DNA of 64,000 bases from Candidatus Thorarchaeota archaeon (GCA_029858305.1 JAOUFI010000003.1:1-64000); one strand, 5' to 3'. Shown: positions 1 to 38,375, numbered from the stretch's first letter. A program made the numbers and translations. Notes: generated by a model from the letters alone, not told the origin.

Positions 1-378
1 GAAGAATCCTAGCTCTGCATTGAACTGACCCCACCAAAATTGGATACTGTGGAGACGAGACATTTCCATCATGATGGTTCTCATGATTTTAGCACGCTCT
101 GGTACCTCGAGTTCAGCTATTTTCTCAACTGCAGCGACATAGGGATATTCAGCTAAAAACGCCTCGAGCATGCACATCCGTTCAAGTACAAGTGCTCCCT
201 GCCTGAAGTTCTTGTATTCTAGAACCTTCTCAGCAGAACGATGGAAGTACCCAGCATTCGGATCACATTCAACTACATAGTCACCAACCAGCGTCAGTTT
301 TGTTGCCCATCCATGTGCGCTGACATGCTGTGGTCCGAACCAGATTTCCATTGCTTCATCAAGTATGTCAGGACTCAC
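1..378 (-). CDS. nuoD: Complex I/MBS-like catalytic subunit D (NuoD/MbxL family), N-terminal part; runs off window start
   Basis: Not in the ORF track. Manual translation from GTG at 378, overlapping the nuoC stop: MSPDILDEAMEIWFGPQHVSAHGW...NAGYFHRSAEKVLEY...LERMCMLEAF...EVPERAKIMRTIMMEMSRLHS. The GPQH, G-x-x-HR-x-x-EK and VPERA motifs are typical of NuoD. Confidence 0.9.
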   Translation of the reverse strand, partial: MSPDILDEAMEIWFGPQHVSAHGWATKLTLVGDYVVECDPNAGYFHRSAEKVLEYKNFRQGALVLERMCMLEAFLAEYPYVAAVEKIAELEVPERAKIMRTIMMEMSRLHSIQFWWGQFNAELGFF

Positions 379-902
379 TCGCTTTCGCCTCCTGTCTTTG
401 GTCTCGCTTTTGGTGGAGTGATACCTGCTTCATCCAGCCTGCTTTGGTCAGTCTGGAATCTTTTGCGGAGAGGAAACACACCTGCAAGCTCATCTGGGAG
501 AAGCAATAATCGAGGGTCGGGATGATTCTTGAAGTCGATTCCAAACATCTCACGAGTTTCTCGTTCATGCCATTCAAAACCTGGAAAGATGTCACAAGTA
601 CTATCAATCTCAGGTCGCTCTCCTTCCAGAGAAACTCTCAACTGCAGTAACATTCGATTGGAGTGAGACCAAAAGATGTAGATTAGTTCGTATTTGTCAT
701 TTTCAAGATCGATACCAAAGATTGACTCGGGCAAAGCGTCATGAACATTCTCATCAATCATGGTCACGATATCACGAATTATGTTGGAAGGCACTGCAAG
801 CTCGATCTCATTCGCTCCCAAAGGTCTTGATGCAACCTCAGGATGCTTATTGATGATCTGTCTTGCGAGAGTTGAAGCTGTGATGCTGGTTGTTTCTGAC
901 AA
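375..902 (-). CDS. nuoC: NADH-quinone oxidoreductase subunit C-like
   Basis: C-terminal motif WHERETREMFGIDFKNHPDPRLLLLP...FPLRK. Start placed at TTG 902, just after the nuoK stop; the ORF track extends it to 950. Confidence 0.9.
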   Translation of the reverse strand: MSETTSITASTLARQIINKHPEVASRPLGANEIELAVPSNIIRDIVTMIDENVHDALPESIFGIDLENDKYELIYIFWSHSNRMLLQLRVSLEGERPEIDSTCDIFPGFEWHERETREMFGIDFKNHPDPRLLLLPDELAGVFPLRKRFQTDQSRLDEAGITPPKARPKTGGESE

Positions 903-903
903 T

Positions 904-1215
904 TTATTGACCCTCCATCTCCACTGATGTACCGAGGTCAACTGAGCCATATCGGCGGTTGTACATCAACATCAGGACCATTGCTAGAGCAGTATGTGCT
1001 GCAGCAACAGAGATTACAAGGATGATAAGTCCCTGACCAGTGAATGAAAACGCGGGATTAAACAGAGCAATAGCAACAATTGCAATCATGACTCCATTAC
1101 CCATTATTTCAGCTCCAATCAGGATTCTGATGAGGTTTCTTTTCACCATCATCCCATATCCACCTAAACCAATTAGCATGAACGCTAGTACTAGATACCA
1201 AGAAAGAGGAACCAT
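904..1215 (-). CDS. nuoK: NADH-quinone oxidoreductase subunit K-like
   Basis: 103 aa, 3 TM helices, KRNLIRILIGAEIM motif. Confidence 0.88.
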   Translation of the reverse strand: MVPLSWYLVLAFMLIGLGGYGMMVKRNLIRILIGAEIMGNGVMIAIVAIALFNPAFSFTGQGLIILVISVAAAHTALAMVLMLMYNRRYGSVDLGTSVEMEGQ

Positions 1216-1862
1216 TATTCATCAACCTCCTTCGGTTCAGGGACAGACTGCCCATCTTCAGCGCTTTGCAAGTCATCAATTAATACTGGTTTAGCTTCTA
1301 CTCCGAACTCTCCTGTGATGGCACCGAGCTGCTCGGCTTTGTCCATTCTCAACAGCGATATAGCACCAACTAATGATGTAATCATAATCAATGCAATCAT
1401 CTGCACATAGATGCCATTCTCAAACCATAGCCACTGTGCAAGACCATTCAAATCTTGAGAGATACTGACAAAGGCCTCATTGAAGGATTCTGCCCAAGGA
1501 AAGAGAACTGCAAGAAATCCGGTCATCACGGTTACTACGACAGCAATAACAAGGCTGATCTGACGAGCTCTGGGTGTGGCGAACTTTTCAAGAGTTGAGT
1601 CTTGTGCTCTTGGTAGTAGTAGAACTGCAAAGATAATCAGAGTACTGATGCCTCCAGTATACACTGCGATTTGCATACCTGCAATGAAAGGTGCTTCAAG
1701 AAGGAGAAAGAATCCTGCCACAAATGATGCCATAAAACCAAAGAAAAATGCGGCGTAAACAATCTCCTTGTGCTCTAGAGCAAGATATGCGAGCACTAGC
1801 ACAATGCCTGCCAAGAGTAGGAACTCTATCTGTTCAAAGAGTGCTGGATCAAATCCTTGCAT
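1215..1862 (-). CDS. nuoJ: NADH-quinone oxidoreductase subunit J-like
   Basis: 5 TM helices, LEAPFIAGMQIAVYTGGI motif, adjacent to nuoK. Confidence 0.88.
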   Translation of the reverse strand: MQGFDPALFEQIEFLLLAGIVLVLAYLALEHKEIVYAAFFFGFMASFVAGFFLLLEAPFIAGMQIAVYTGGISTLIIFAVLLLPRAQDSTLEKFATPRARQISLVIAVVVTVMTGFLAVLFPWAESFNEAFVSISQDLNGLAQWLWFENGIYVQMIALIMITSLVGAISLLRMDKAEQLGAITGEFGVEAKPVLIDDLQSAEDGQSVPEPKEVDE

Positions 1863-1864
1863 GA

Positions 1865-2332
1865 TTAATGACCTCCTGTAGGATATTGTTCTTTTTCTCG
1901 TTCAGCTTTAGCTCTCCTGTATACATCTAGAGTTTCTTTTCCATCAAGGAATGAGCGTGGAATCATTTTCATGACAAAACCAACTCCACCCATTACTATG
2001 AGAATAAACACAACAACCTGCCAAACAACCTCATACTTGGTTGCATTAGCCCACAAAAGGGTAGAAGAGGATAGCAGCCAAAGGAACGCTCCCATTACGT
2101 CAATGACGACAAACAGTACGGTGTAAACGAAATAATTGTACGGATACGATATGCGTGCAGGACCTACTGGTTCCTCACCACATTCGTATGTTGAAGTCTT
2201 CTCGGAGTTTTGAAGCACATGCGGTCTCAACACCCATGAGGCTAGTAGCATTATAATGACAAGAGCCATCGCAAGTAGCGCCCAAATTATAACCGGAATG
2301 AAATCTAGAAACAATCTACTAGTTTGCATCAT
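1865..2332 (-). CDS. nuoA: NADH-quinone oxidoreductase subunit A-like
   Basis: KTSTYECGEEP loop and 3 TM helices. Confidence 0.9.
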   Translation of the reverse strand: MMQTSRLFLDFIPVIIWALLAMALVIIMLLASWVLRPHVLQNSEKTSTYECGEEPVGPARISYPYNYFVYTVLFVVIDVMGAFLWLLSSSTLLWANATKYEVVWQVVVFILIVMGGVGFVMKMIPRSFLDGKETLDVYRRAKAEREKEQYPTGGH

Positions 2333-2684: not shown

Positions 2685-3050
2685 GTGATTTATTTGACCC
2701 GTGGTGAAGAAGGAACATTCTTCTATTATCTGGCGCTCTTACTAGGGATGGCTCTATTAGGAGCCTACTTATGGAATATTTTGACAACGACATTGGCTCC
2801 TCAATACATGTTCTTCCACTGGATCCTTGTCATGAGTTGCATACTACTCATCACAACTGCTTTTGGATTCGTTGCAGCCAACACACGATCAAGTAGGATA
2901 TCTCTAACAATGATATCTGGAGTAGTAGGTGGTATTCATGCCTATCTCATCTTTGTGCTATTTGATTTGATAATGGGAATTATTCTGTTCGCATGGATGG
3001 CTTTAGGACTTCTGGTTGCATTCGCTGCATTTAACTGGATTTACGAATAA
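2685..3050 (+). CDS. Hypothetical 4-TM membrane protein
   Basis: 121 aa hydrophobic ORF with a GTAGGTGA SD-like sequence at its start, between the nuo operon and the NuoB-fusion operon. Confidence 0.65.
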   Translation: MIYLTRGEEGTFFYYLALLLGMALLGAYLWNILTTTLAPQYMFFHWILVMSCILLITTAFGFVAANTRSSRISLTMISGVVGGIHAYLIFVLFDLIMGIILFAWMALGLLVAFAAFNWIYE

Positions 3051-3060: not shown

Positions 3061-3603
3061 CTATTCGTTCGAAGACTCAGATGGAGTATCAGCGGATTCA
3101 CTGGACTCCTCAGATTTTACCTCGGCTTCAGGCGCAGCTTCCACAATTGGCTCAGGCTCGGGCTCAGGCTCAGGACCATAGTGTAGCTTACTAGTATCCA
3201 AGATACCGGGTGAGTAGCTCTCTTCACTAGTATGCATTATTGCAAAGCCTGCAGCAGTAAGGATTGATCCTCCAAGACCCCATGCAGATAGATAGAGTGT
3301 GGTTCCAGCTGCTGGAAGAGCTGTCACAAACTGGTCAATGAAGACGACGAAGAAAAAGCCAGCCAGAACAGATAGGGACATCATTAGGTTTTTTCCTTTT
3401 CCTTTCTCGGGTCTGAAGTACCCAATCAATAGGAAGACCATAAGAATGGAAACGCCACCCAGAAGAGTGAAGGCACTTCCAATTACAATTGCTGAAGCTG
3501 GCATCATGAACCCGAGATATACAAAGTTGAAGATGAATGATGTCAGAATAATGAGACCGAGCCAAAGCAGACAATATGGATCACTATCTTGCCGGATTGC
3601 CAT
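3061..3603 (-). CDS. Hypothetical 4-TM membrane protein with Pro/Glu-rich acidic tail
   Basis: Start overlaps the stop of the 3603..5543 gene; four hydrophobic segments; PEPEPEPEP tail. Confidence 0.7.
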   Translation of the reverse strand: MAIRQDSDPYCLLWLGLIILTSFIFNFVYLGFMMPASAIVIGSAFTLLGGVSILMVFLLIGYFRPEKGKGKNLMMSLSVLAGFFFVVFIDQFVTALPAAGTTLYLSAWGLGGSILTAAGFAIMHTSEESYSPGILDTSKLHYGPEPEPEPEPIVEAAPEAEVKSEESSESADTPSESSNE

Positions 3604-5543
3604 TACTGCATCATCCCCATCGCATCTTGATTCTCATATCTTTGTTGCCAGTGAGTCGTCCCAGCTCGTATCTTGTTCTGCAAAATCAGGTGTGCTCGGA
3701 TAAAGTCCGCGGGTTTGGGAGGACATCCGGGGAGATAGACATCGACTGGTACAATTTTGTCAGGAGGTGTTGCCAAGCTGTATCCTTCCCAGAAGAGCCC
3801 CCCGGAGGCAACACATTGACCGAAGGCAATGACATACTTGGGCTCTGGCATCTGTTCATAGATTCTCCTGAGTCGTGGTGCCATCTTCTTTGTGAGAGAG
3901 CCTGAGATCCATAGGACATCAGTCTGTCTTGGGCCAAACAGAGGTAGCATTCCGAACCTCTCAAAGTCCCATCGAGGGGCGATTCCTGCGGCACCATCCA
4001 CCATGCAGCATCCTATTCCATACTGCATTGGCCAAGGACTATGTGCCCTTCCCCATCTAAGCACCCATTTCAGCGGGGGTACATTCTGCAGCCATTTCAA
4101 GAGGATTGGCGCAATTCGGCCCCAACCATTCCTGAATAGGTCGAAGAAGACCCACATGAAGTACTTGCCGATTCTTAATATGAAAGGAAGCCAGTAAGCA
4201 AATATCTTTCCAGGATTCGAAATCTCCTTCTTATCCCATTCTAGCTTCGCAGCTCGAATTCGAGATAAACGCTGCTTTCCAAAGTACTGATTTGCGTAGT
4301 TTGCAAACCAGATTCCTGTTGAGTGCACATGGCCCCCGTGACGTTGTGCAATTTTGAATATGACAAAGCTCTGTGACCAGGAGAGCATGAAGAAGTGCCG
4401 TCGCTCATCCTCCAGAAAGTATCCCATCATCGTCACGCCAGTCTTCGAGTTAACATAGCCATCAATTCCAGCTCTTGCAGAGGCTTGTTCAAATTGAAAG
4501 TCGTCAAGGATTGCGGCAAGGTTCTCTAGAGGTGCAAATGCCTGACCGACAACTAGTGTTGGACCTTTCTTTTTGATCTTCATGGGATAGTATCGCTCAT
4601 GCCATTCATGATCTGCAACTTCATCATCGTAAACGCGTCCACGATACATCTCAGTGACTTCGCGTACGACTCTCAGTCCCTCTTCAATCTCTTCCTCATT
4701 ACCTTCATATGCAACCATCAATGAACAATGGTGAGCAGGAATCGGGAATGGCTTCTTGCCCTCCCAGATAGCCTTCTTGAGGTCTGTGTATTTTGATTCT
4801 TCGAATTTTATCGTGTAGGGAATTGGTCCATCTTCAAGGATCTTCTCAATCGCAAGGACCATCTGATAATTCTCTTCAAAGCTGGAAACTATGACTTTCA
4901 TCGGCGTTAGAGTTTTGATCTTAATAGTAGCCTTAGTGATTATACCCAAAATTCCCTCAGTATCGCAAAAGAGGTCGAGATCTTTCGTCTTGACTATTTT
5001 TCCAGTTGGCAAAACAACTTCTAATTTAACGACGTTCTTATTGATGTTCCCGTATTTCAAAGAACCAATGCCATCGCCACCTTGGGCAATCCAACCACCC
5101 ACAGTTGCCGATACACCAGATGAGGGATAACATCGTACATCAAGACCTTGCCTATTCAACTCGAATTGAAGATTAGCCCATGATATCCCGGGCTCAACTG
5201 TGACAGTCAAATTCTCACTATCAACTTCGAGTATCTTATTCATACTGCGCAAATCAACGATGATTCCACCCTTGCGCGGAATGGCACCACCATAACCAGA
5301 TGTCCCAGCTGCTCGGGGAACAAGAGGAATCTTGTACTTGCGCGCAATTTCGTAGAGTGTCTGTATCTCCTCAGGAGTCAGAGGCTGTGCTATGGCATCA
5401 GCCTTCGTGTTCATGAGCCAACCAACCTGCTTTGGGAGAGAACCAACATCTTGTCCAAACAAAATCAGTTCATGCTTCGCAGTAATCAGGCGGTCTCCAA
5501 AAACCTTCTCGAGTTCATTTTGTGCTATTTGCTTAAGGACCAT
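3603..5543 (-). CDS. Fusion: FAD-linked oxidase (GlcD/Dld-type) + NuoB Fe-S subunit
   Basis: N-terminal PRAAGTSGYGG, PSSGVSATVGGWIA and EGILGIITKA (FAD_binding_4 type). C-terminal GCCMVD, FERFG...PRQTD, SGSLTKKMAP, GQCVASGG and VDVYLPGCPP (NuoB). Confidence 0.92.
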   Translation of the reverse strand: MVLKQIAQNELEKVFGDRLITAKHELILFGQDVGSLPKQVGWLMNTKADAIAQPLTPEEIQTLYEIARKYKIPLVPRAAGTSGYGGAIPRKGGIIVDLRSMNKILEVDSENLTVTVEPGISWANLQFELNRQGLDVRCYPSSGVSATVGGWIAQGGDGIGSLKYGNINKNVVKLEVVLPTGKIVKTKDLDLFCDTEGILGIITKATIKIKTLTPMKVIVSSFEENYQMVLAIEKILEDGPIPYTIKFEESKYTDLKKAIWEGKKPFPIPAHHCSLMVAYEGNEEEIEEGLRVVREVTEMYRGRVYDDEVADHEWHERYYPMKIKKKGPTLVVGQAFAPLENLAAILDDFQFEQASARAGIDGYVNSKTGVTMMGYFLEDERRHFFMLSWSQSFVIFKIAQRHGGHVHSTGIWFANYANQYFGKQRLSRIRAAKLEWDKKEISNPGKIFAYWLPFILRIGKYFMWVFFDLFRNGWGRIAPILLKWLQNVPPLKWVLRWGRAHSPWPMQYGIGCCMVDGAAGIAPRWDFERFGMLPLFGPRQTDVLWISGSLTKKMAPRLRRIYEQMPEPKYVIAFGQCVASGGLFWEGYSLATPPDKIVPVDVYLPGCPPKPADFIRAHLILQNKIRAGTTHWQQRYENQDAMGMMQ

Positions 5544-6119: not shown

Positions 6120-9100
6120 ATGAAGACCTCTAATAAACTAACAATTACCATTGTTCTTTCTGTTTTCATCATTTTAATTGCTGGAGCCTACTCAGCGGCA
6201 GGCCAACCGAGTCGAACCAGTGAATGTGCACCATGTCATACCCTCGACCTGGTTCATATGACGATTTCATCGAACGCAACCGGAACAGTCGATGCCAAAG
6301 TGGGAAACCAATTCTCGTTAATCATTAATGCGGCATCACTTGATACAAATCCACAAACAGGAAGTATGGCTGTTAAAGTCTATAGTGGATGGGCTGATAA
6401 CAGTCAGTTCTCATTCACAGACCCGTTGCTAGTAATCGATAATGGAGCTGGAGATTCAAACTCGAATAGCGTTCAGATAACTACCACGTTCACATTTACG
6501 CCCCTGGCAGTTGGTACATGGACACTTAGAATCTGGACAGCCGCGTCCCAAGGTGATTCAGGAAGAATATCTCAAAAGCTTGATGTAACAGTATCGGTCA
6601 CACTCTCAGATTCTACTCCACCAACAATCGACAGTCCAATAGACATGATAATCGATGAAGGAGATAATACAAAGAACATTACCTGGAGCCCGTCTGATGC
6701 AAATCCAAGCAGCTATCAAGTTTTTGATGATTCTGTGTCATGGCAGAGTGGGCCCTGGGATGGATCGACTATAACTGTACAGCTTGGTTCACTCGGATTA
6801 GGGACCCACAACATCACTCTTGCTGTGTGGGATGCAGCTGGAAACTCGGCATCAGATCAAGTAGATGTGACAGTTCTCGATGGAACGTCACCTAGCATTA
6901 ACAGTCCAGCAAATGTGACTTACAGCGAGGGTTCCTCCGGATACTCAATAACATGGGATCCAACTGATACCCATCCATCAAGTTACGTAATCTATCGAGA
7001 TGGAGTGTCTGTCAAATCAGGGACTTGGAATGCTAGTATCGAAACAATTTCTGTTTCAGTTGATAGCCTCGCAGTTGGCACGTACAACTACACAATTGTT
7101 GTATCAGACGTAGGAACGAACACCATTGCTGACACAGTGTATGTCATAGTATATGATGGGACATTCCCCACAATCGATAATCCTGCAGATGTAACCTATG
7201 ATGAAGGTGATACAGGATACAGCATCACTTGGAACCCCGCCGACTTGAATCCGGTTAGTTATATCATTTACAAAGACGCAGTACCAGTGAAATCAGGTTC
7301 CTGGAACTCGAGTGCAGAATCCATCAGCATCATAGTTGATGGCCTTGCTGTTGGAAACTACAGTTATGTATTGGAGGTGACTGATATCGGATCTCTTACT
7401 GCGTCGGACCTAGTTTTGGTCATTGTTTCTGATGGGACTCTACCGACAATTAATAGTCCAATCGATATAACATTAAACGAAGGAGTAATAGGATACTCTA
7501 TTACTTGGAACCCGACAGATCTGAATCCACAAAACTACACAATCTACAGAGATGGAGTTCCTGTAAAATCAGGCCTTTGGAACTCTAGTGGTGAGTCAAT
7601 CTCAATTTCAGTTGATGGTCTCGCAATGGGTTCATATACATACCTGATTATTGTTGAGGATGTTGGACATAATCCAGCAACAGATTCAGTTCTTGTCACT
7701 GTAGTTGACGCAACAGATCCTACAATTGATACTCCAATTGACCAAAATGTAGTTGAGGGATCAAGTGGTAATCAAATCACCTGGAGTCCTTATGACCTTC
7801 ACCCATCATCTTATCAAATCTATCGTGAACATGTACTTGTCAAATCTGGAACATGGAATAGCAGTTCAGAAACAATCACATTCTCGGTTGATGGACTCAC
7901 ATTGGGAGTCTACAATGTTACAATAGTTGTATTTGACACAACATCAAGAAAAGCTATTGATACTGTTTTTATCACGGTCTATGATGGAACACCACCAATT
8001 GTTGATCATCCAGCTGACATTGACTATCCAGATGGTGACATAGGATATTCAATCACCTGGTCCCCTACAGACCTGCATCCAGTAAGCTATCAGATTTTGC
8101 GAGAGGGCGTGCAGGTGAAATCGGGTATGTGGAACTCTTCGAGTGAAACAATATTCATATCTGTTGACTGGCTTTCTATTGGATCTTACAACTACACGAT
8201 TGTTCTCGTTGACATCGGTGGCAACATAGTACTTGATGAAGTCATTGTTACGGTGTATAACGCAGACTTACCAACTATTAATCATCCCACCAACCAGACC
8301 ATTTCTGAAGGAGCTGCTGGTCTTTTAGTGATTTGGAAGCCATTAGACCTCAATCCCTCTTCATATGCAATATACAAAGACGGAGTTCTCGTCAAGTCTG
8401 GAGCGTGGAACTCAAGTGCTGAAACAATCAGCATTTCACTCGATGGATTATCTCTGGGCGAGTATAACTTTACTGCCTTGGTTACTGACCTAGACAGCAA
8501 TACAGCGAGTGATACAGTGTGGGTCACTGTCGTTGATGGTACACCTCCTGTTCTTAATCATCCAAACGACATCACGTACGATGAAGGAAGTCCTGGAGGA
8601 ACCCTAACTTGGATTCCAACAGACTTGCATCCTGTGAGTTATACGATCTACTTCGAAGGGTCTCCAGTGAAATCCGGTCTCTGGAACTCTAGTGGTGAAT
8701 CTATCTCGATATCAGTCGATGGACACCTAGTTGGAGGTTATAATTACACAATAAGAGTCGTGGATGTTGATGGAAACATTGACACTGATACAGTGTTCGT
8801 CTATGTGATGGATGGCACACTTCCAACAATCGATACTCCAAGTGATATTAATTATAATGAGGGTGAAGCAGGAGGAACAATCACTTGGGATCCTGCAGAC
8901 TCATATCCAGCGAGCTATGAAATCTTTAGAAATGATGTTCTTGTGAAATCTGGCTTATGGAACCTAACATCAGAAACTATCTCAATATCTGTGACTGGAC
9001 TATCTGTTGGATCTTACAATTTCACAATATTAGTATACGACGTGGGAAGTAATTCTGTTCTAGACACGGTATGGGTCACAGTATCCGATGCAACACTTCC

Positions 9101-10364
9101 AACGATTGATACACCAGTCGATAGACAAATCGACGAAGGTCAGACTGGAGAAATAATTACATGGGATCCATCTGATTTGAATCCGATAAGTTACGAAATC
9201 TACAGAAATCAAGTCATTTTCAGAAACGGTTTATGGAATTCAACTTCGGAAATGATCTCAGTTTCACTTGATGGACTTGGTCTAGGTGTTCACAACTTCA
9301 CATTGGTTGTATTCGACATCGGCTTGAACTCTGCGAATGATACTGTGCTGGTAACTGTCATTGATGGTACATCACCAACTATTGATAGTCCATCCGATGT
9401 CTTCTATGCTGAAGGAGTGATAGGTTATTCTATAACATGGAATCCATCAGACCTTCACCCAGTAAGTTATGAAATACTCAGAGAAGGGGTCCAACTAAAG
9501 ACGGGTCCATGGAACTCATCATCTGAATCCATCACTGTCAATGTGGATAGCCTGACCCTTGGATCATACAACTTCACAATCTATGTCACTGATGTTGGTG
9601 GAAACATTGCAAGCGACACCGTATTTGTTATCGTTTCTGACGGTAATGCACCGACAATTGATAGCCCTCCAGATGTGACATACGATGAAGGAGATACTGG
9701 CTTCTCTATTCAATGGAATCCAGCTGATGCACATCCATCAGGGTATGAGATATACAGAGAGGATGTCCTGATATTCTCTGGACTATGGAACTCATCTTCG
9801 GAAACAATCACAGTATCAGTTGATAGCCATCAAGTAGGAACATACAACTATACGATACGTGTCTTTGATATTGGCGCTAGCAGTGTATCTGATACGGTGA
9901 TGGTCATTGTTCAAGACGGGACATTACCCATGATCGATAGTCCAGCTGATATTGTCTACAATCAAGGCGATACTGGAAACTCAATTACTTGGAATCCCTC
10001 AGATTTGCATCCGATGAGCTATGAGATATTTCGAGATGGAGTGTCGATTAAATCAGGATTGTGGAATTCAAGCAGTGAATCAATTGTTATTATAGTGGAC
10101 GGGCTCACTCTTGGCGTTCATAATTATACGCTTGTTGTTATCGATATTGGTACTAATTCAGCACTTGATCAAGTGAATGTACTAGTCCAAGCCTCAACAT
10201 CTCCAACGACACCCACAACAAGTACACAGACAACAACTCCCGAGAATCCCAATGTACCGCAAATACCCTTGGAGCCAATTTTGATGATACTTGTCACCTG
10301 GATTGGCGTTGGTGTACTTGCGTTTGTCATTGCCGATTTTCTAGTTAGACGATATAGAGGATAG
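6120..10364 (+). CDS. Large surface protein: signal peptide, mono-heme c (CxxCH) beta-domain, 13 Ig-like repeats, C-terminal TM anchor
   Basis: ECAPCH near the N-terminus; repeats of ~92 aa; Thr/Pro-rich linker; TM helix followed by RRYRG. Confidence 0.9.
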   Translation: MKTSNKLTITIVLSVFIILIAGAYSAAGQPSRTSECAPCHTLDLVHMTISSNATGTVDAKVGNQFSLIINAASLDTNPQTGSMAVKVYSGWADNSQFSFTDPLLVIDNGAGDSNSNSVQITTTFTFTPLAVGTWTLRIWTAASQGDSGRISQKLDVTVSVTLSDSTPPTIDSPIDMIIDEGDNTKNITWSPSDANPSSYQVFDDSVSWQSGPWDGSTITVQLGSLGLGTHNITLAVWDAAGNSASDQVDVTVLDGTSPSINSPANVTYSEGSSGYSITWDPTDTHPSSYVIYRDGVSVKSGTWNASIETISVSVDSLAVGTYNYTIVVSDVGTNTIADTVYVIVYDGTFPTIDNPADVTYDEGDTGYSITWNPADLNPVSYIIYKDAVPVKSGSWNSSAESISIIVDGLAVGNYSYVLEVTDIGSLTASDLVLVIVSDGTLPTINSPIDITLNEGVIGYSITWNPTDLNPQNYTIYRDGVPVKSGLWNSSGESISISVDGLAMGSYTYLIIVEDVGHNPATDSVLVTVVDATDPTIDTPIDQNVVEGSSGNQITWSPYDLHPSSYQIYREHVLVKSGTWNSSSETITFSVDGLTLGVYNVTIVVFDTTSRKAIDTVFITVYDGTPPIVDHPADIDYPDGDIGYSITWSPTDLHPVSYQILREGVQVKSGMWNSSSETIFISVDWLSIGSYNYTIVLVDIGGNIVLDEVIVTVYNADLPTINHPTNQTISEGAAGLLVIWKPLDLNPSSYAIYKDGVLVKSGAWNSSAETISISLDGLSLGEYNFTALVTDLDSNTASDTVWVTVVDGTPPVLNHPNDITYDEGSPGGTLTWIPTDLHPVSYTIYFEGSPVKSGLWNSSGESISISVDGHLVGGYNYTIRVVDVDGNIDTDTVFVYVMDGTLPTIDTPSDINYNEGEAGGTITWDPADSYPASYEIFRNDVLVKSGLWNLTSETISISVTGLSVGSYNFTILVYDVGSNSVLDTVWVTVSDATLPTIDTPVDRQIDEGQTGEIITWDPSDLNPISYEIYRNQVIFRNGLWNSTSEMISVSLDGLGLGVHNFTLVVFDIGLNSANDTVLVTVIDGTSPTIDSPSDVFYAEGVIGYSITWNPSDLHPVSYEILREGVQLKTGPWNSSSESITVNVDSLTLGSYNFTIYVTDVGGNIASDTVFVIVSDGNAPTIDSPPDVTYDEGDTGFSIQWNPADAHPSGYEIYREDVLIFSGLWNSSSETITVSVDSHQVGTYNYTIRVFDIGASSVSDTVMVIVQDGTLPMIDSPADIVYNQGDTGNSITWNPSDLHPMSYEIFRDGVSIKSGLWNSSSESIVIIVDGLTLGVHNYTLVVIDIGTNSALDQVNVLVQASTSPTTPTTSTQTTTPENPNVPQIPLEPILMILVTWIGVGVLAFVIADFLVRRYRG
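6609..10190 (+). repeat. 13 diverged tandem intragenic repeats (~276 bp / ~92 aa, Ig-like beta-sandwich)
   Basis: Consensus DGTxPTIDxPxDxxYxEGxxGxSITWxPxDLxPxSYxIYRDGVxVKSGxWNSSxExISISVDGLxxGxYNYTIxVxDxGxNxAxDTVxVxV. Unit starts at 6879 and 7155 are 276 nt apart. Confidence 0.9.
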
Positions 10365-13002: not shown

Positions 13003-13006
13003 AACC

Positions 13007-13492
13007 ATGACACTAAGATTGCCTCATTATGATAGCACCAAGAAGACAACTAAGATTCCAGATGATGCCTTGAACATCCTTCGAGATGGATTCTTTGCGT
13101 ATTTAGGTACGGCTGACCTAGTCTGCGAACCTCATGTAACGGCTATGTTCTATATTTGGGATGATGATTCTAAGACAATCCATCTTATTACTTCAAAAGA
13201 AAGTAAAAAGGTGCTAAATATCAGACGAAATACAAGAGTGAGTGTTACTATCGATCAAAGAGACCCTAAATCACCAGCTCGTAACTCAGGTGTAATGGTA
13301 AAGGGAAGAGCGCTCCTTGTAGAGATGGAGCTTATTGATGATGAACTGACAGTGAAATATCTTGAGAAGTATGTTGAATTTCTAGGAACTGGATATCCTT
13401 TGGGGCTCAGGATTGCGATTCGAGTAGTTCCACAGACAATCTCCTATTGGAAGGGAACTAATTTCTACCGATGGAAGAATCGGAGCTCCTAA
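13007..13492 (+). CDS. Pyridoxamine 5'-phosphate oxidase-like split-barrel protein
   Basis: FAYLGT...PHVTAMFY...SKKVLNIRRNTRVSVTID...GVMVKGRA; paralogous to the C-terminal domain of the upstream gene. ATG at 13007 preferred as start. Confidence 0.8.
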   Translation: MTLRLPHYDSTKKTTKIPDDALNILRDGFFAYLGTADLVCEPHVTAMFYIWDDDSKTIHLITSKESKKVLNIRRNTRVSVTIDQRDPKSPARNSGVMVKGRALLVEMELIDDELTVKYLEKYVEFLGTGYPLGLRIAIRVVPQTISYWKGTNFYRWKNRSS

Positions 13493-13496
13493 ATTC

Positions 13497-21317: not shown

Positions 21318-21403
21318 TCTTTTTCTTTCCTTGTGAAATGTTTCGCGCAATTGCGATGTGCTTTTAAAATTCGGGTTGTGGCTGTATCGGATTGCCTAGA
21401 GCT

Positions 21404-24404: not shown

Positions 24405-24414
24405 GGTGATTGAA

Positions 24415-25875: not shown

Positions 25876-25884
25876 ATCGTTACA

Positions 25885-27009: not shown

Positions 27010-27028
27010 GAAGAGTTACATAGAAACA

Positions 27029-28372: not shown

Positions 28373-28463
28373 CTCTAAGTTCAAATTGATATAGCCAAGG
28401 GTGAGACTACCCTTGGCATAACTATATACTGCAAGTATGAAATTCAGGACTAGATAGATTCCT

Positions 28464-29672
28464 GTGGTGTACTTTGAGATGACCAAACTGGACTTCATTG
28501 AGAGATACGGGCAAGAAAACGAACCGTATATCTGCGCATCATGTGGGAACTGCACTCTTGTGTGTCCAGTTTACAGCGAATTGAAATGGGAATCCTACGG
28601 TCCCAGAGGAAAGCTCCATGTCGTTAAATCGATAATCGAAGGAGAAGGTGAATTTGGAAAGGATTTCGCTCACAAAATATTCCTCTGCAATCTTTGTGAG
28701 CATTGTACTTCTGTTTGCACAACTGGTATTAGTCTTGACAGATTTTGGGAAGTAGCTAGAGCAGAGGTCAGAGAGAGGGGTCTCTTGCCAGCACCAGCAC
28801 AATTCGTTCTAAAGTCGGTCAAAGAACGTGGCGACATCATGTGGATGGGTTCTGCGGATAGACTCCTTTGGATGGAAGGTATTGATGAGCTGGTCAAAGA
28901 TCGCATCCTGAAAAAAGCCAAAGTTGCGTATTTTCTTGGTTGCAATGTTTCATTAAAATCGCAGCTACATGATGTTGCACAATCAATGGTTAAAATCATG
29001 GACTATGCTGGTATCGACTTTACCCTACTAGGTGAGAAAGAAGTATGTTGTGGTGCTCCTCTGAGTTGGGCTGGAAATCTTAAAGACATCAATGAAATGG
29101 CTGAGAAGAATCTGTCACTGATTCGTGAACTAGGTGTTGAAACTGTAGTTTTTAGCTGCCCCTCCTGTATTCAGACATGGTCGGAATACAGCAAATCTGT
29201 AAAAGAAGACAAGAGTATTGAGCTGTTGACAGCATCTCAATTCATCAACCGTCTAATTCGAGAGAAACGACTTCATTTCGAAGAACAACCTATGATTACG
29301 ACAACATTTCATGATCCATGCATATCTGCGAGGGTCTTGAAAGCGACTGAGGAACCGAGAGAGATAATGGATGAGATTCCCGGAGTATATCATGTCGAAA
29401 TGAATCCATCCCGACAAAACACGAGGTGCTGTGGCGCTCATGGTTTACTTGATGTTGTTGATCCAGTTCTTTCATCAAGAATTGCTGAAAGACGCCTTAG
29501 AGATGTTACTGTTACCCCGGCCACTCGAATTGTCACTGAGTGTCCGCGATGCATTCTAGCATTTGACCTAGCAAAATTTACAACTGGTTATGAGATGTTG
29601 GTACAAGATATTACACAACTTGTAGAAGGTGCTTTGTCGCCAAAAGAACAGGGAGGTGGCAAAGACCACTGA
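28464..29672 (+). CDS. Fe-S oxidoreductase, GlcF/HdrD family (CCG domains)
   Basis: CASCGNCTLVCP, CNLCEHCTSVC, VCCGAP, FHDPC, RCCGAHG. Confidence 0.9.
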   Translation: MVYFEMTKLDFIERYGQENEPYICASCGNCTLVCPVYSELKWESYGPRGKLHVVKSIIEGEGEFGKDFAHKIFLCNLCEHCTSVCTTGISLDRFWEVARAEVRERGLLPAPAQFVLKSVKERGDIMWMGSADRLLWMEGIDELVKDRILKKAKVAYFLGCNVSLKSQLHDVAQSMVKIMDYAGIDFTLLGEKEVCCGAPLSWAGNLKDINEMAEKNLSLIRELGVETVVFSCPSCIQTWSEYSKSVKEDKSIELLTASQFINRLIREKRLHFEEQPMITTTFHDPCISARVLKATEEPREIMDEIPGVYHVEMNPSRQNTRCCGAHGLLDVVDPVLSSRIAERRLRDVTVTPATRIVTECPRCILAFDLAKFTTGYEMLVQDITQLVEGALSPKEQGGGKDH

Positions 29673-31613: not shown

Positions 31614-32210
31614 ATGAAACGAAACCGTGTATCGAGAGTCGCCGTCGCCATTGGCTTCTTGCTATTATTAGTTGCTACTGCTGCGGGATCAGTCGGAGCT
31701 TTTCCAAGCCAGACAAACGAATGTGGAACAACTGGCTGTCATGATACGCTCGGAACTTTGACTATTGCCTCTAATTCGACGAGCATGAGTGCAACAACAG
31801 GAGAACCTTTTGCTCTTCTTCTAGATGCAGGAAATGGTGCGGATTGGATAGCTATCAGGAATGGGTGGGCGGATAATTCTCAATTCTTGATTTCTGTAGA
31901 GGAGGTAGAGGATGGTTCTGCGAATGACACAAATACAGCCTCAGGAGCAATATCTGTCGAGGTAACATTCACACCATTATCCTCTGGTGATTTGACAATT
32001 CGTATTTGGACAGCTGCTGGAGGCGATTTAGCATCTTCATTAGATATCACTGTCACAGTGACAGGTGAATCAATAACAACAACAACACCACCGCCCAACA
32101 ATGAAGCAGATTTACTTTGGACCTGGAGAATAATGATGATAATACTACCTGTTTCAGTAGGTGTAGTTCTTCTGATTCTAGGTTTTACTGTATTCAAGAG
32201 GAGATCATGA
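31614..32210 (+). CDS. Small membrane-anchored mono-heme c (CX4CH) beta-domain protein
   Basis: Signal peptide, ECGTTGCH, GWADNSQF and IRIWTAA shared with the 6120 protein; C-terminal TM. Confidence 0.8.
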   Translation: MKRNRVSRVAVAIGFLLLLVATAAGSVGAFPSQTNECGTTGCHDTLGTLTIASNSTSMSATTGEPFALLLDAGNGADWIAIRNGWADNSQFLISVEEVEDGSANDTNTASGAISVEVTFTPLSSGDLTIRIWTAAGGDLASSLDITVTVTGESITTTTPPPNNEADLLWTWRIMMIILPVSVGVVLLILGFTVFKRRS

Positions 32211-32224
32211 AGTAGGTGATATGA

Positions 32225-32728
32225 ATGGCATTACATCCAGTTTTTGTTCACTTCCACACTGGAATCCTAGCAGCTGCGGCCGCTCTAGCATTGATCAGTC
32301 TAATCTTGCGATTCTTGTTTCGGGATAACATTCGCACTCCTGGGACACGGCTAGCTCGACTGTTTCATTATATTGATGTGTTTATCTTCATAGGTAGCAT
32401 AATCGGCTTCATCGGATTAATTGCAGGTATGATGACAGGATTCATGGAACCAGATTATTCTCTAGCAACACTTGAAGCATTACCGGCTATGAGGTTCAAA
32501 ATTCTCTGGTCCATAGTATGTGTTGAAATATACCTCTTCCTAATGGTTGTCCGAGCTAGACTAGGAGATCGGGTTTGGGTAGGCACGGCTAGCTCCCTAA
32601 TCTACGGTATTCTTGTTATAGTCGGTGGTCTGCTCATAATCATTATTGCTGCACTTGGAGGAATTGCAGTATATGGAGAATCCATACTATCACCCATCCT
32701 TGATTGGTTGGGACTACCATGGCCATGA
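32225..32728 (+). CDS. 4-TM membrane protein, DUF2231-like (possible heme b binding)
   Basis: N-terminal LHPVFVHFH motif, four hydrophobic helices, LGGIAVYG. Confidence 0.65.
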   Translation: MALHPVFVHFHTGILAAAAALALISLILRFLFRDNIRTPGTRLARLFHYIDVFIFIGSIIGFIGLIAGMMTGFMEPDYSLATLEALPAMRFKILWSIVCVEIYLFLMVVRARLGDRVWVGTASSLIYGILVIVGGLLIIIIAALGGIAVYGESILSPILDWLGLPWP

Positions 32729-32743
32729 TAAGGAGATTCAGTC

Positions 32744-33922
32744 ATGACAAAACCCTATGAACCTCTCAAAATTGAGGGACTTGATATTGAACCAACAGTG
32801 TGTGCGAGATGTGGTTTCTGCACCTTCGTGTGCCCAGCATATCTTGACACACTTTGGGATTCTCAATCACCGAGAGGAAAGCTATACCAACTGAGAGACC
32901 TTATTAAAAATAAGAAGAAAATCCCTGCTGACTTTGCAGCCAGGATATTCAATTGTACCTTGTGTGGAGCATGCCAGGAAATTTGTCAGACAAACATACC
33001 TCTTTTGAGATTCTGGCAACTTACGAGAGAAGAGATTGGCAATCTTGAAGAATGGCCAGAAATCGTGAATTATATCGATACCGCCTTACAAGAGACCCAA
33101 AACATCATGGAAATGGACCAGGATGACAGAACTCTCTGGACCGATATGGTTGATGACCTTGTAGAAAAGAGAACTGGAATCAAAGCTGAAGTTGCGTATT
33201 TTGCAGGCTGCAACATTTCATTCAAAGGCACCCTCGCTCATCTTGGTGAGAATACGATAAAAGTAATGGATGCAGCAGGTGTCGATTTCACAATACTTGG
33301 CAGCGAGGAGTTCTGCTGCGGCAATCCATATTTTGTAGCTGGTGGCTTCGATAAAGCTCGAGAGCTTGCAATGCATAATCTAGCAGCGCTCAAGGAATTA
33401 GGCGTGAAGACGGTTGTATTCAACTGCCCTGGATGTCATCGAGCCTTTGCAGAGGAATATCCCCATCTACTCGGAAAGGATTCGGTAGAGGGATTAGAGT
33501 TTCTGCCTTTCTCCGAGTTTACCCTAAGACTTCTCAAAGAAGGAAAAATCAAGTTCACAAAGAATTACCCTCACACAGTCGCATGGCATGATCCATGTGA
33601 ACTTGGACGTCATCAGAATATCTACAATCCTGCTCGAGAAGTCCTTAATGCAATTCCCGGACTCAAACTGCGGGAGATGAAGCATGCAAGAAACAAGGCA
33701 AGATGCTGTGGCGGTGGAGGACTGCTGAAGGGGACTAATCCAATGATGTCGGTGAGAATATCGGGTCGGAGAGTTGAAGAAGCGGAAAAGACCGGAGCAG
33801 AATTCATAGCTAGCGAATGTCCATCGTGTACGATGTCATTCAATGACGGAATTGAGCACAAGAATTCCAAAATGAAATTCAAGGATTTGTCACAGATTGT
33901 CGTGGAAGCTCTTGGATTATAG
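32744..33922 (+). CDS. Fe-S oxidoreductase, GlcF/HdrD family (CCG domains)
   Basis: CARCGFCTFVCP, CTLCGACQEIC, FCCGNP, WHDPCELGR, RCCGGGG. Confidence 0.9.
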   Translation: MTKPYEPLKIEGLDIEPTVCARCGFCTFVCPAYLDTLWDSQSPRGKLYQLRDLIKNKKKIPADFAARIFNCTLCGACQEICQTNIPLLRFWQLTREEIGNLEEWPEIVNYIDTALQETQNIMEMDQDDRTLWTDMVDDLVEKRTGIKAEVAYFAGCNISFKGTLAHLGENTIKVMDAAGVDFTILGSEEFCCGNPYFVAGGFDKARELAMHNLAALKELGVKTVVFNCPGCHRAFAEEYPHLLGKDSVEGLEFLPFSEFTLRLLKEGKIKFTKNYPHTVAWHDPCELGRHQNIYNPAREVLNAIPGLKLREMKHARNKARCCGGGGLLKGTNPMMSVRISGRRVEEAEKTGAEFIASECPSCTMSFNDGIEHKNSKMKFKDLSQIVVEALGL

Positions 33923-33933
33923 GTGGTGAAGAG

Positions 33934-35733: not shown

Positions 35734-36414
35734 ATGTCGGCAAAAGCAGTCGTTGTGAGAAATCTCACTCGAAGATACGGTTACAGAGTGGCATTAAAAG
35801 ATATATCACTAGATTTCTCAGAGAATGGGATTCAAGGATTATTTGGAGCTAATGGAGCAGGAAAAACAACACTAATGCGAATCATATCAACGCTGCTACG
35901 CCCTCATAGTGGAACAATCTCCGTTATGGGATTTGATCCGCAAGAAGAACCAGAAGAAGTGAAGAAGTATCTTGGTTTGGTGGGTGACAAAACGCTTCTA
36001 TACGATGAACTATCAGGCATTGAAAATCTTCGATTCTATTCCAAGCTCTATGGATTGCATCGCGACTTCTTTGAAACTCAAGTTGAGGAATTATCTCAAC
36101 GTTTTGCCATCAAAACCTGGCTTGAGGAACCTGTGAAGAATTTATCAACAGGGCTCAAGAAAAGACTGGATATTGTTCGAAGCTTGATTCACAATCCTAT
36201 GCTACTACTTCTGGATGAGCCATTCAGCGGACTAGATAAAGATACTACTGAGGATTTTTGGGACTACCTCAATGAACATAGAAACACAAGAACAACAATT
36301 GTGACAACTCACAATTTAGCCCTTGGTGCTAATTTGTGCGACGAATTTGTCACTCTCAGGAAAGGAGTAGTAATTAATCAAGGTCCAATTTCTCAGTTTG
36401 ATCAGACACTCTGA
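35734..36414 (+). CDS. ccmA: Heme exporter ATP-binding subunit CcmA
   Basis: Walker A GANGAGKT, LSTG, LLDEPFSGLD; first gene of the ccm cluster. Confidence 0.85.
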   Translation: MSAKAVVVRNLTRRYGYRVALKDISLDFSENGIQGLFGANGAGKTTLMRIISTLLRPHSGTISVMGFDPQEEPEEVKKYLGLVGDKTLLYDELSGIENLRFYSKLYGLHRDFFETQVEELSQRFAIKTWLEEPVKNLSTGLKKRLDIVRSLIHNPMLLLLDEPFSGLDKDTTEDFWDYLNEHRNTRTTIVTTHNLALGANLCDEFVTLRKGVVINQGPISQFDQTL

Positions 36415-36423
36415 GGTGATATT

Positions 36424-37104
36424 ATGACGTCAGGCCTAGGCGCAGCATTAGCAATCGCAAAGAAAGACATCATCATTCAGTTACGTAAGAAGTTTGAAGC
36501 ATTCTCAATGTTCCTATTTGCCCTCATCGCAGTCCTCGCATATTCCTTTGCGTTGGTTTCACAAGGATCTATACCAGCAGATGTAGGTAGTGCAATGCTG
36601 TGGGTCATCATTTTCTTCATGGGGATGTTTGGCTTCGCTCCCATTTTCCTCTCCGAGTCAGAAACTGGCACATTACGCGGTCTCGCTACTGCGCCGATTC
36701 CCGCATGGGCGGTCTATGTTGGTAAGGTGATCTATGGTTTTGTTCTGATGGGAATAGTTGAGGTCTTTCTGGTACCGATTATTTCTATACTGTTTGGTTT
36801 TTCTTTTCTAAATGATATTCCACTTACTGTTGCTGTACTCGTAGTTGGAACACTAGATTTGTCAGCAGTTGGTTCAATGGCCTCGGCTCTAGTAATGCCT
36901 TCAGAGGCAAAAGCAACAGTATTCCCCCTTGTCTATTTCCCTACTGCAACGTCAGGTCTAATTCTCCTCATTGAAATCACCAAGATCATTGTATTGGGTC
37001 CAGGCGTTGTGCCGATTATGTTACTATTTGAAATACTTCTTGCTCATCTGATTGCAATGCTGACACTATCGGCTTCTGTGTTTCACTTTGCACTTTCACC
37101 TTGA
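36424..37104 (+). CDS. ccmB: Heme exporter permease CcmB
   Basis: 6 TM helices, FLSESETGTLRGL...VGK; lies between ccmA and ccmC. Confidence 0.85.
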   Translation: MTSGLGAALAIAKKDIIIQLRKKFEAFSMFLFALIAVLAYSFALVSQGSIPADVGSAMLWVIIFFMGMFGFAPIFLSESETGTLRGLATAPIPAWAVYVGKVIYGFVLMGIVEVFLVPIISILFGFSFLNDIPLTVAVLVVGTLDLSAVGSMASALVMPSEAKATVFPLVYFPTATSGLILLIEITKIIVLGPGVVPIMLLFEILLAHLIAMLTLSASVFHFALSP

Positions 37105-37172
37105 ATGCGTGTCTTCAGCAAAACGTTCATATTGCAAGTAGTAGGGGAATCAGCAGTTCGAGTTGAAAAGCC

Positions 37173-37841
37173 GTGAGCAATACCAGACTGATATTTCTCG
37201 CAGTAGCAGCAGTGATATCATTACTCTATGTCTACATGACATGGATCTTTTCCCCGCCAGATGCGATACTTGGAGAAAACGTTCGCATTTTCTTCCAGCA
37301 CATTGCACCCGCTCTTGTCGCATACGGATTATTTGGAGGGACGTTACTGTGCGGAGTGATGTATCTGTGGAAGGGAGATCTAAAATATGACATCATCGGA
37401 GCAGTATCAATCAAACTTGGACTGTTGTTCACTACGATTACCCTATTGAGTGGAATGTTGTGGGCTAATGCAGCATGGCATTCACCTTGGAATTGGGATC
37501 CCCGCGAAACGACCACTCTCATCTTATGGATTGCATATGCATGTATTCTGGCATATCGAGCTTCTGTAACCGATAGGGAAGCGAGAGCTCAATTTGGTTC
37601 CATTTTCGGAATTGTCGCGTTCCCGATGGTGTTATTGAGCTATCTTTCAATTCGAATATGGAATACTCTTCATCCAATCGTAATTGATGAATCTGGATTC
37701 CATATGGGAATCGAACACATGATGACTCTGTTCGTAGCTATGATTGCTGTCACAATGATTGCACTGATTATGGTCGAGCTAGCGTACAAAGTTGATTCAG
37801 CATATGAAAAGTTGATGAGAATAAGAATGTCAAGGAGTTAA
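37173..37841 (+). CDS. ccmC: Heme chaperone/exporter CcmC
   Basis: RIFFQHI, GMLWANAAWHSPWNWDPRET (WWD), TLHP. Confidence 0.92.
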   Translation: MSNTRLIFLAVAAVISLLYVYMTWIFSPPDAILGENVRIFFQHIAPALVAYGLFGGTLLCGVMYLWKGDLKYDIIGAVSIKLGLLFTTITLLSGMLWANAAWHSPWNWDPRETTTLILWIAYACILAYRASVTDREARAQFGSIFGIVAFPMVLLSYLSIRIWNTLHPIVIDESGFHMGIEHMMTLFVAMIAVTMIALIMVELAYKVDSAYEKLMRIRMSRS

Positions 37842-37845
37842 GAAT

Positions 37846-37986
37846 ATGCAACAGTTTGAACTATTCATCGTAGCCACAATATTTTGGGGTGGTATTTTCA
37901 TTTTCCTATTATACCTTCTAATGAGAATGGCTGGAATCGAGAAACAACTCAAAGTTGTAGAAGCACAGATCGATGGAGAACAATAG
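37846..37986 (+). CDS. ccmD: CcmD-like small membrane protein (46 aa; below the ORF-track cutoff)
   Basis: MQQFELFIVATIFWGGIFIFLLYLLMRMAGIEKQLKVVEAQIDGEQ: one TM helix plus a charged tail, exactly between ccmC and ccmE, preceded by AAGGAG. Confidence 0.7.
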   Translation: MQQFELFIVATIFWGGIFIFLLYLLMRMAGIEKQLKVVEAQIDGEQ

Positions 37987-37988
37987 AA

Positions 37989-38375
37989 ATGAGAAAGAAA
38001 ACTCGGATGGCACTTGTTGCAGTCATCTTGGTAGTTACTATTAGTATTGTCGGATATCAAATGTTGAATCTTTATGTCGACCCCTACCTGAGTGTAGATG
38101 CCGTAGTCGAGCATCCTGAATCATTTATGGGTCGTACAATACAGGTCAAAGGAGAGCTTCAGGCAGGATCTCTGACCATTGGTCAAGATAATGTGACATT
38201 AGTATTAGTGGGAGATAATCACACGATCATAGTGCTGTTGCTAGGTGAAGTTCCTGATATGGTGGATGGTCAAGATATTGTTGCGATTGGTACGCTAGAA
38301 TCAGCCACTCTCATAAGAGCAACTCAGATTCTAACTTCATGCCCAAGTAAGTACGAAGCCCCAACTACAACATAG
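37989..38375 (+). CDS. ccmE: Heme chaperone CcmE, CxxxY variant (system I*)
   Basis: N-terminal TM, OB-fold-like body, C-terminal TSCPSKYE. The true start is ATG 37989. Confidence 0.9.
   Translation: MRKKTRMALVAVILVVTISIVGYQMLNLYVDPYLSVDAVVEHPESFMGRTIQVKGELQAGSLTIGQDNVTLVLVGDNHTIIVLLLGEVPDMVDGQDIVAIGTLESATLIRATQILTSCPSKYEAPTTT

Follow-up and report, generated by a model that had tools for sequence, protein, structure and literature searches.

A conserved redox gene island of a Thorarchaeia archaeon joins a complex-I-like pump with a flavoprotein-NuoB fusion to an accessory cytochrome block

We analysed a stretch of 64,000 nucleotides from Candidatus Thorarchaeota archaeon (GCA_029858305.1, JAOUFI010000003.1:1-64000), hereafter the window, which opens a contig of 102.7 kb in a genome that is 89% complete. 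The host is a Thorarchaeia archaeon; related loci are labelled Thorarchaeota or carry kindred Asgard names, in agreement with the first-pass annotation, made from the sequence alone, that had supposed an Asgard host. Positions 1-38375 hold a redox island (Table 1) in which, by our own sorting, 30 of 33 genes serve redox reactions or cofactor assembly, which bears out the earlier description of nearly every gene over about 38 kb as redox-related. Each gene named in that annotation was found at its place, including MenA, a prenyl synthase, a geranylgeranyl reductase, CcmA/B/C/E/F, a multiheme cytochrome and four FAD oxidases. It had overlooked the fusion of the first FAD oxidase to NuoB, the His-rich four-helix part of the repeated unit and an extra NuoM. 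Gene order is conserved across Thorarchaeia genomes, and thus the scattering of these genes among relatives that would have spoken against an island was not seen. The G+C content of the island equals that of the genome (0.428), and a recent foreign island was rejected. We found that the island is real and conserved, and that it consists of two nested modules, a pump and an accessory cytochrome block, instead of one self-contained unit. Counts given below refer to a sample of 86 genomes of the family, of which 23 form a subset of best assemblies, unless another set is named.

A headless pump whose NuoB is fused to a flavoprotein

The gene FAD1-NuoB is a single frame that holds a VAO-fold flavin domain and a complete NuoB, and this NuoB is the sole one found in the host genome. 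Its NuoB part has the four N2 cysteines when aligned to NdhK and scores above the cut-off of TIGR01957. The fusion occurs in full length in 20 of 24 genus relatives; in the family, the Thor-type NuoB region is matched in 59 of the 86 genomes and the junction is spanned in 57, and an assembly artefact was rejected as its origin. It was not found in 15 genomes of four genera within the sample. In one record (L088) the fusion, nuoD and menA are each broken into two open reading frames (ORFs), probably through sequencing indels. The AlphaFold model of the fusion is confident for the flavin part alone, and since the NuoB part has a pLDDT below 50 nothing is read from the placement of the domains.

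Downstream of the fusion, nuo genes follow in 42 of 52 loci, and 8 of the other 10 end within 1.2 kb. In the window the contig begins within nuoD and truncates the operon, so that NuoA, B, C, D, J and K are present; H, I, L, M and N are supplied by the loci of relatives, where the full order is A-J-K-C-D-H-I-M-L-M-N, and the host contig C41 carries M, L and the start of a second M. Together they form the 11-subunit set of a headless complex-I-like enzyme, with NuoEFG not in the locus. The two NuoM copies reach 300 and 403 bits against the TIGR01972 cut-off of 263.8, and the NuoL helix motif is doubled, at a spacing of 26 residues, in 24 of 25 sequences, the remaining one being truncated. By the second NuoM and the 26-residue NuoL insertion, the pump is, as judged from its sequence, a 2M-type complex. 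The NuoL of a relative's second complex was considered as a one-M control and left unused, its helix region being also long. NuoD keeps both His of GPQH..HG in 35/35 sequences, which together with a Tyr we take to be residues of the quinone site. It retains one of the four NiFe cysteines and fails to show the two CxxC motifs of a group 4 [NiFe] hydrogenase; a hydrogenase was ruled out on the three missing cysteines. A relative encodes a second, true group 4 NiFe hydrogenase complex, with both CxxC motifs and L, M and N, right after ccmE (L034:17010-20000 and L035:1-7593). MenA, the prenyl synthase and the reductase often flank the fusion.

Flavin/CCG enzymes, surface proteins and cofactor supply

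All four island CCG proteins, as the first-pass annotation had them, are Fer4 plus CCG proteins with the full cysteine pattern, that is, two [4Fe-4S] and two complete CCG sites. Of the 44 loci that show both CCG1 and the fusion, 33 have the two genes immediately adjacent and 8 have the 1414-amino-acid surface protein between them, and the nearest outside relatives of the fusion are single FAD-Fer4-CCG chains of about 1020 amino acids from Thermincola, Chloroflexi and Methanoperedens. On account of this adjacency and of these single chains we read CCG1, which is HdrD-like and has no membrane partner gene, as the likely partner of FAD1-NuoB. In a quick tree FAD1, FAD3 and FAD4 group with the fused chains (SH-aLRT 99), and FAD2 stands apart, unplaced, as does FAD5. 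A fifth FAD/CCG pair, led by a stand-alone four-helix protein of 136 amino acids, occurs in many relatives (e.g. L021:12789-15908) and is absent from the window. Such pairs are common in the host genome, where a CCG neighbour adjoins 9 of 11 other FAD paralogs. For FAD3 a CTG or ATT start is likely, because the frame is open from 29669 up to the called ATG at 29741 and homologs have about 573 amino acids.

The fold of the island flavoproteins is that of the VAO family, with a TM-score of 0.84 (by target) against mouse LDHD and a match also to AGPS. The motifs GHxGDxNxH and EHG, which we take to be the metal-binding motifs of FAD-dependent D-2-hydroxyacid dehydrogenases (GlcD/LctD/LDHD), are absent in all four island FAD proteins and present in the paralog C205:24972, and a lactate or glycolate dehydrogenase was rejected despite the fold. 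The C-terminal His-rich motif of alkyl-DHAP synthase is likewise absent in the island proteins, a similar one being found in the paralog C166:56080, and this enzyme was rejected too. The flavin substrates are probably neither lactate nor glycolate. Among the neighbours of 80 loci of fused homologs (60 selected neighbours scanned) no hint of a substrate was seen.

The accessory block comprises ten genes in fixed order (23208-35655): three FAD/CCG pairs, two His-rich four-helix proteins and Ig-fold surface proteins with CXnCH motifs. To the same module we count the OcwA-like multiheme cytochrome and the Ccm genes. We fetched 20 loci from the 35 genomes with a full-length match to the 398-amino-acid protein that opens it. 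The order is complete in 12 of these, 2 miss one gene in the ORF call and contig ends truncate 6; no reordering was seen, and one locus has menA inserted. Such an order is far from chance, and it persists in relatives at identities as low as about 45%. Any block marker is present in 45/86 genomes, the block lies next to the pump in the long contigs examined, and none was found where genera lack the fusion (15 genomes). Of the repeated cassettes drawn by the first-pass annotation, the one placed at 6120-11684 was misdrawn: it does not repeat the others, since its CCG1 goes with the divergently oriented fusion. An HpnE-like gene within the block (27029-28372) is among its most conserved, with 73-91% identity, above FAD2. 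In a single sediment study the multiheme gene is covered by contigs of three RNA runs; in one of these, short pieces of nuo, fusion and several block genes occur as well, and most of the island is uncovered. These runs were found using a stretch that contains the multiheme gene, and the contigs are unable to rank genes; they fit with transcription of island genes.

The three surface proteins have two CXXCH motifs and one CX4CH between them, each after a signal helix; the CX4CH motif is that of the third (31614-32210), which does not have CXXCH. The model of the 398-amino-acid protein shows two beta-sandwiches and a four-helix bundle (pLDDT 86), and the CXnCH motif and five membrane His of this protein recur without exception in 100/100 homologs. 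It is full length in 35/86 genomes and partial in 3. The surface domain occurs in 41/86 genomes and CcmF in 38/86; both are found in 34, neither in 41 and one only in 11, an agreement in 75 of 86 genomes that are kin and not independent. The surface CXnCH proteins are predicted, on these sequence features, to carry heme. An electron wire was ruled out for the 1414-amino-acid protein, whose lone motif stands beyond about 13 heme-free repeats and whose gene lies between fusion and CCG1 in only 8 of 44 loci. A class I cytochrome c was not recognised in the surface domain, which is modelled as a beta-sandwich and shows no conserved ligand. A fold search with the 398-amino-acid protein returned generic Ig/FnIII and four-helix matches (best Z 11.7 and 11.5), under the bundle threshold; cytochrome b, cytochrome f and Reeler/DOMON entries were absent among the fold matches listed, which excludes none of them. 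An FRRS1-like reading (Atlas Reeler lead 0.82 with 27% of members) was not adopted, and a resemblance of the four-helix domain to DUF420 finds no support in Pfam.

The membrane-anchored multiheme protein keeps its CMHCM site in 9/10 sequences. The CXXCK motif, which we take to be the active-site motif of NrfA nitrite reductase, occurs in 0/10, and a nitrite reductase was rejected. Its best solved relative is OcwA (PDB 6I5B, E 5e-9, residues 103-342), a weak similarity. The island holds the archaeal System I set for cytochrome c maturation, CcmABCEF with a CXXXY-type CcmE. The first-pass annotation had also listed CcmD; the ccmD position holds an ORF of 46 amino acids with a single helix and no Pfam match, kept in 10/10 Thor loci that have both ccmC and ccmE (9 genomes) and weakly matching an ORF after ccmC in the metagenome locus L149. 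Published work states that archaea have no ccmD (PMC9084895).

MenA was found in 65/86 genomes, MenD above cut-off and MqnA in 0/86 each, and HemB in 1/86; in the host genome HemC was not found, and MenB and AhbD were not above cut-off, with controls positive in model genomes. Because these heme- and ring-synthesis markers are missing, gene content suggests that heme and the naphthoquinone ring are probably scavenged, or that MenA prenylates another ring, and the island is not self-contained as had been claimed. In the 89%-complete host genome no heme-copper or bd oxidase was found and one molybdopterin-family match only; it also encodes acetyl-CoA synthase and three NiFe large-subunit-like genes.

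Outside the family, the four-helix domain occurs in two more Asgard families (19/68 and 4/7 genomes) and was not found in any further family of the sample. The membrane module keeps four His there and precedes FAD and CCG genes in 16/16 loci (16/17 gene copies; loci from 14 of 23 genomes), so that the true repeated unit is a triplet, made up of a membrane protein, a flavoprotein and a CCG protein. In these families the form with the surface domain lies beside ccmF in 8/9 cases and the stand-alone form in 0/8. In another Asgard family the surface domain of nine loci, beside ccm genes (L203, L205, L207, L210, L212-L214, L216, L217), has the motif HXnCH, for which a single-thioether heme attachment is possible. 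Among 80 metagenome loci of fused bacterial-type homologs, 4 have ccm neighbours, 3 of these with multiheme genes; in L117, L123, L135 and L149 fused FAD-Fer4-CCG homologs stand beside ccm genes and 10-12-heme cytochromes, and L117 also has an NrfD/Fe-S pair.

Beyond the island the window holds a heliorhodopsin gene at 46872-47693 (+) and genes for MutS, UvrA and MutL at 39377-41977, 50974-53805 and 60246-62060, of which mutS borders the island in most relatives. A 632-amino-acid protein at 49066-50964 (-) has two similar nucleotidyltransferase-like halves, with a Pfam match in the second half only.

Table 1. Features of the redox island and its border, with positions in the window
Feature	Position	Strand	Remarks
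NuoD, N-terminal part	1..378	-	operon truncated here by the contig start; H, I, M, L, M, N follow in relatives
NuoC	375..950	-	PF00329
NuoK	904..1215	-	PF00420
NuoJ	1215..1862	-	PF00499
NuoA	1865..2332	-	PF00507
Small membrane protein, no family	2685..3050	+	position conserved
Three-helix membrane protein, no family	3061..3603	-	downstream of fusion, position conserved
FAD1-NuoB, VAO-fold flavoprotein fused to the genome's only NuoB	3603..5543	-	
Surface protein, CXXCH Ig-fold tip on ~13 PKD/Ig repeats, C-terminal anchor	6120..10364	+	variable among relatives; 1414 amino acids
CCG1, 2x[4Fe-4S] and 2 CCG domains	10458..11684	+	likely partner of FAD1-NuoB
DUF7530 membrane domain fused to PPOX-type split barrel	11740..13002	+	
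PPOX-type split-barrel protein	12971..13492	+	
MenA-family prenyltransferase	13497..14600	-	TIGR00751, 118 bits, cut-off 102
Polyprenyl diphosphate synthase	14683..15723	+	PF00348
Geranylgeranyl-reductase-family protein	15735..16925	-	TIGR02032 above cut-off
CcmF heme lyase	17049..19121	-	
Exported, membrane-anchored protein, weak epimerase-barrel matches	19143..21350	-	735 amino acids; travels between multiheme gene and ccmF
Membrane-anchored multiheme cytochrome, 8 CXnCH and conserved CMHCM	21474..22847	-	OcwA/NrfA superfamily
Exported CXXCH Ig domain, second Ig domain, four-helix membrane domain	23208..24404	+	398 amino acids; five invariant His
FAD2 flavoprotein	24394..25875	+	
CCG2	25885..27009	+	
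HpnE/phytoene-desaturase-like flavoprotein	27029..28372	+	highly conserved in block
CCG3	28464..29672	+	
FAD3 with C-terminal membrane helices	29741..31390	+	true start probably upstream
Anchored surface Ig domain, CX4CH	31614..32210	+	
DUF2231-like four-helix membrane protein, conserved His	32225..32728	+	below Pfam cut-off
CCG4	32744..33922	+	
FAD4 with C-terminal membrane helices	33934..35655	+	
CcmA, CcmB, CcmC	35734..37841	+	
Single-helix ORF of 46 amino acids, ccmD position	37846..37986	+	no Pfam match
CcmE with CXXXY motif	37989..38375	+	
NADPH-dependent FMN reductase family	38381..39007	-	after ccmE in most relatives

Possible electron flow and its alternatives

It is quite possible, and it is the interpretation to which we tentatively lean, that the pump and the optional block work together as a chain, linked by quinone, through which electrons leave for acceptors outside the cell. 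Outward disposal appears as the most likely use since no other terminal reductase was found and the multiheme protein presumed at the surface is OcwA-like. In such a chain each flavoprotein would pair with its CCG neighbour as a single enzyme, and electrons would pass, in the order known from EtfD, from flavin to the CCG clusters, the cubane clusters and a membrane acceptor. For FAD2/CCG2 and FAD4/CCG4 this acceptor would be heme b held in the four-helix proteins, whereas FAD1/CCG1 would deliver to the NuoB cluster or an adjacent quinone; the block triplets would thus connect a cytoplasmic flavin reaction to a membrane carrier or a surface heme, as the fusion would connect a like head to the pump. 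MenA, the prenyl synthase and the reductase may turn scavenged naphthoate into a menaquinone-type carrier, which the pump would reduce from ferredoxin or from the flavin head, moving up to five ions. The four-helix/heme-c proteins would then draw electrons from the carrier and hand them through the membrane to the OcwA-like cytochrome, and this may reduce Fe(III), humics or a partner cell. A bolder version, unlikely as a whole, sees a modular respiratory chain of undescribed design in which metal-free flavin/CCG heads dock on one of two partners, NuoB of a five-ion pump or a member of a new four-helix heme family bearing an Ig-fold cytochrome, with a His-for-Cys form in other Asgard families; with it Asgard archaea would respire minerals or pass electrons to partners without hydrogen, using the heme and quinone rings of their neighbours.

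Several observations weigh against this chain. In all 35 NuoD sequences Met or Leu replaces the Tyr of the quinone site of complex I. Of the 59 fusion-bearing genomes, 21 have the pump and no cytochrome marker at all, 9 of them belonging to the 23 best assemblies, so the pump needs another outlet, and the first-pass notion of one single system is not supported. No quinol oxidase of NapC/NrfH or NrfD type was found in the window. As for the hemes, motif spacing varies among the 100 homologs of the 398-amino-acid protein (CX2CH 59, CX3CH 3, CX4CH 32, CX5CH 6), the beta-sandwich of the surface domain lacks a conserved sixth ligand, and in another Asgard family this domain has His for the first Cys in 9/9. 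The four-helix domain has no known family or diagnostic fold in Pfam and fold searches, for which reason its heme b is something we infer; the fifth His is absent in the stand-alone form and 1/16 DUF2231-like homologs lacks three His. Among the metagenome loci of fused relatives, 76/80 have no cytochrome neighbours and 0/80 have nuo neighbours. Finally, a single-contig, 86%-complete genome (G049, L180) holds the block with no match to CcmF, either by an assembly gap or by loss. The conduit from flavin to surface supposed by the first-pass annotation is still plausible, by the invariant membrane His, the co-occurrence of surface domain and CcmF and the OcwA-like cytochrome, although not as one self-contained system.

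Electrons may also move the other way, the surface cytochromes or flavin heads feeding the quinone pool and the 2M pump running in reverse, so that an ion gradient would be spent on ferredoxin for the Wood-Ljungdahl pathway. The host genome does encode acetyl-CoA synthase, 2M complexes have been proposed to run backward to ferredoxin (10.1101/2021.11.15.468770), and the potential window of OcwA is wide (PMC6703420); nevertheless we found no terminal oxidase or other respiratory pump to supply the gradient, and the pump persists in genomes without cytochromes, so that this direction appears rather unlikely to us. We assign a low probability to a further case, that of two independent systems clustered because they share a quinone, with the block serving a soluble acceptor at the surface, such as an oxyanion of nitrogen or sulfur or an oxidant that has to be cleared, and not solids or partner cells. 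The patchy distribution of the block, the separation of fusion and nuo genes in 2 loci with 9 kb of flank, and the membership of the multiheme protein in the NrfA/OcwA superfamily, whose non-standard CMHCM site (9/10) could be catalytic, agree with it. The absent CXXCK motif of nitrite reductases does not, nor does the fact that the block adjoins the pump in long contigs and was not found in the 15 genomes of fusion-less genera.

In another use of the same genes the flavin/CCG enzymes would have an isoprenoid lipid or a lipid-soluble carrier as substrate and, with the HpnE-like enzyme, geranylgeranyl reductase, prenyl synthase and MenA, would make a novel membrane carrier or cycle its redox state, the hemes only balancing that chemistry. 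The HpnE-like gene sits inside the block and is better conserved than FAD2, no ring pathway for standard menaquinone is present, the metal motif of 2-hydroxyacid dehydrogenases is absent and the fold also matches the lipid-handling AGPS; yet the His motif of AGPS is absent too, MenA or prenyl-synthase neighbours occur in 0/80 loci of fused relatives, and three modules have dedicated membrane or pump partners, which makes this use seem quite improbable. Finally, the CCG proteins might be disulfide reductases of the HdrD type, with the pump driving heterodisulfide reduction and no quinone being reduced at NuoD. All ten CCG cysteines are retained, a pattern that we take to be general to CCG proteins, and NuoD has lost its Tyr and kept one Cys. 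An Fpo-HdrD-GlcD complex has indeed been proposed for Methanomethylicia (10.1101/2022.08.18.504445), but here MenA and the tail enzymes flank the fusion in many loci and no disulfide substrate is evident; we give this reading little credence.

Relation to known systems and meaning for the Thorarchaeia

A second NuoM and a 26-residue helix insertion in NuoL are described for the 2M complexes of Nitrospira and Manganitrophaceae (10.1101/2021.11.15.468770), and the island pump has both. Unlike the 2M complex I of Nitrospira, it is archaeal, has the order A-J-K-C-D-H-I-M-L-M-N with no NuoEFG in the locus, carries a NuoB-flavoenzyme fusion and lacks the usual Tyr in NuoD. The headless Fpo-like complex with HdrD and the proposed Fpo-HdrD-GlcD complex (10.1101/2022.08.18.504445) also tie a complex-I-like pump to a CCG protein and, in the latter, to a flavoprotein of GlcD fold. 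What is a proposed link in that case is a gene fusion in the island, with a flavoprotein lacking the GlcD metal motif and with an extra pump subunit. The Asgard group 4 hydrogenase and complex-I-like complexes (10.1101/2024.07.04.601786) are headless as well and some have a heterodisulfide reductase domain, but they are read as H2-evolving and have fewer antiporter subunits, while the island pump has more and its NuoD lacks three of the four NiFe cysteines. Section 7 of that preprint, on Asgard complexes, does not discuss Thorarchaeia.

For the block, the closest likeness is to EtfD of mycobacteria, a wire from flavin through CCG and cubane clusters and heme b to menaquinone (PMC13083937), and to HdrDE and DsrMK, with which the island shares two CCG and two cubane domains, feeding by a flavoprotein and, putatively, a His-ligated membrane heme. 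In the island the parts are split among three genes, the membrane subunit belongs to an unrelated four-helix family and bears an exported CXnCH domain, and a VAO-fold flavoprotein takes the place of ETF. OcwA of Thermincola potens is a surface terminal reductase for solid and soluble acceptors (PMC6703420). Surface exposure, membership of the NrfA superfamily, a C-terminal helix bundle and a maximum of nine heme sites would be common to OcwA (6I5B) and the island multiheme protein. The match is distant (E 5e-9), and the island protein differs by its C-terminal membrane anchor and its CX4-5CH and CMHCM sites. The FLEET locus of Lactiplantibacillus plantarum (PMC9888254) likewise gives a fermenter a dehydrogenase, quinone-finishing genes and surface carriers, with naphthoate from outside, but it is flavin-based, has no hemes and no pump, and dmkA and dmkB are largely dispensable there.

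The island is a conserved and apparently undescribed arrangement of known kinds of parts. We found no description of the fusion, of a 2M complex or of the block in Thorarchaeia in the openly searchable full text, including PMC11237513, PMC7997004, PMC13374861, PMC9723677 and PMC6737245; subscription papers and preprint supplements may list the genes. The NuoB fusion is direct genetic evidence that a complex-I-like pump bears a GlcD/HdrD-type module, which had previously just been proposed, and both the three-gene membrane unit and the multiheme protein are of a size that suits expression and assay. Asgard groups such as Thorarchaeia have been treated, in the papers cited, as fermenters without cytochromes for electron export (10.1101/763623, PMC8163825). 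If the proposed chain is true, roughly half of the genomes of the family would encode a disposal of electrons that is independent of hydrogen, and this would bear on the syntrophy models of eukaryote origins.

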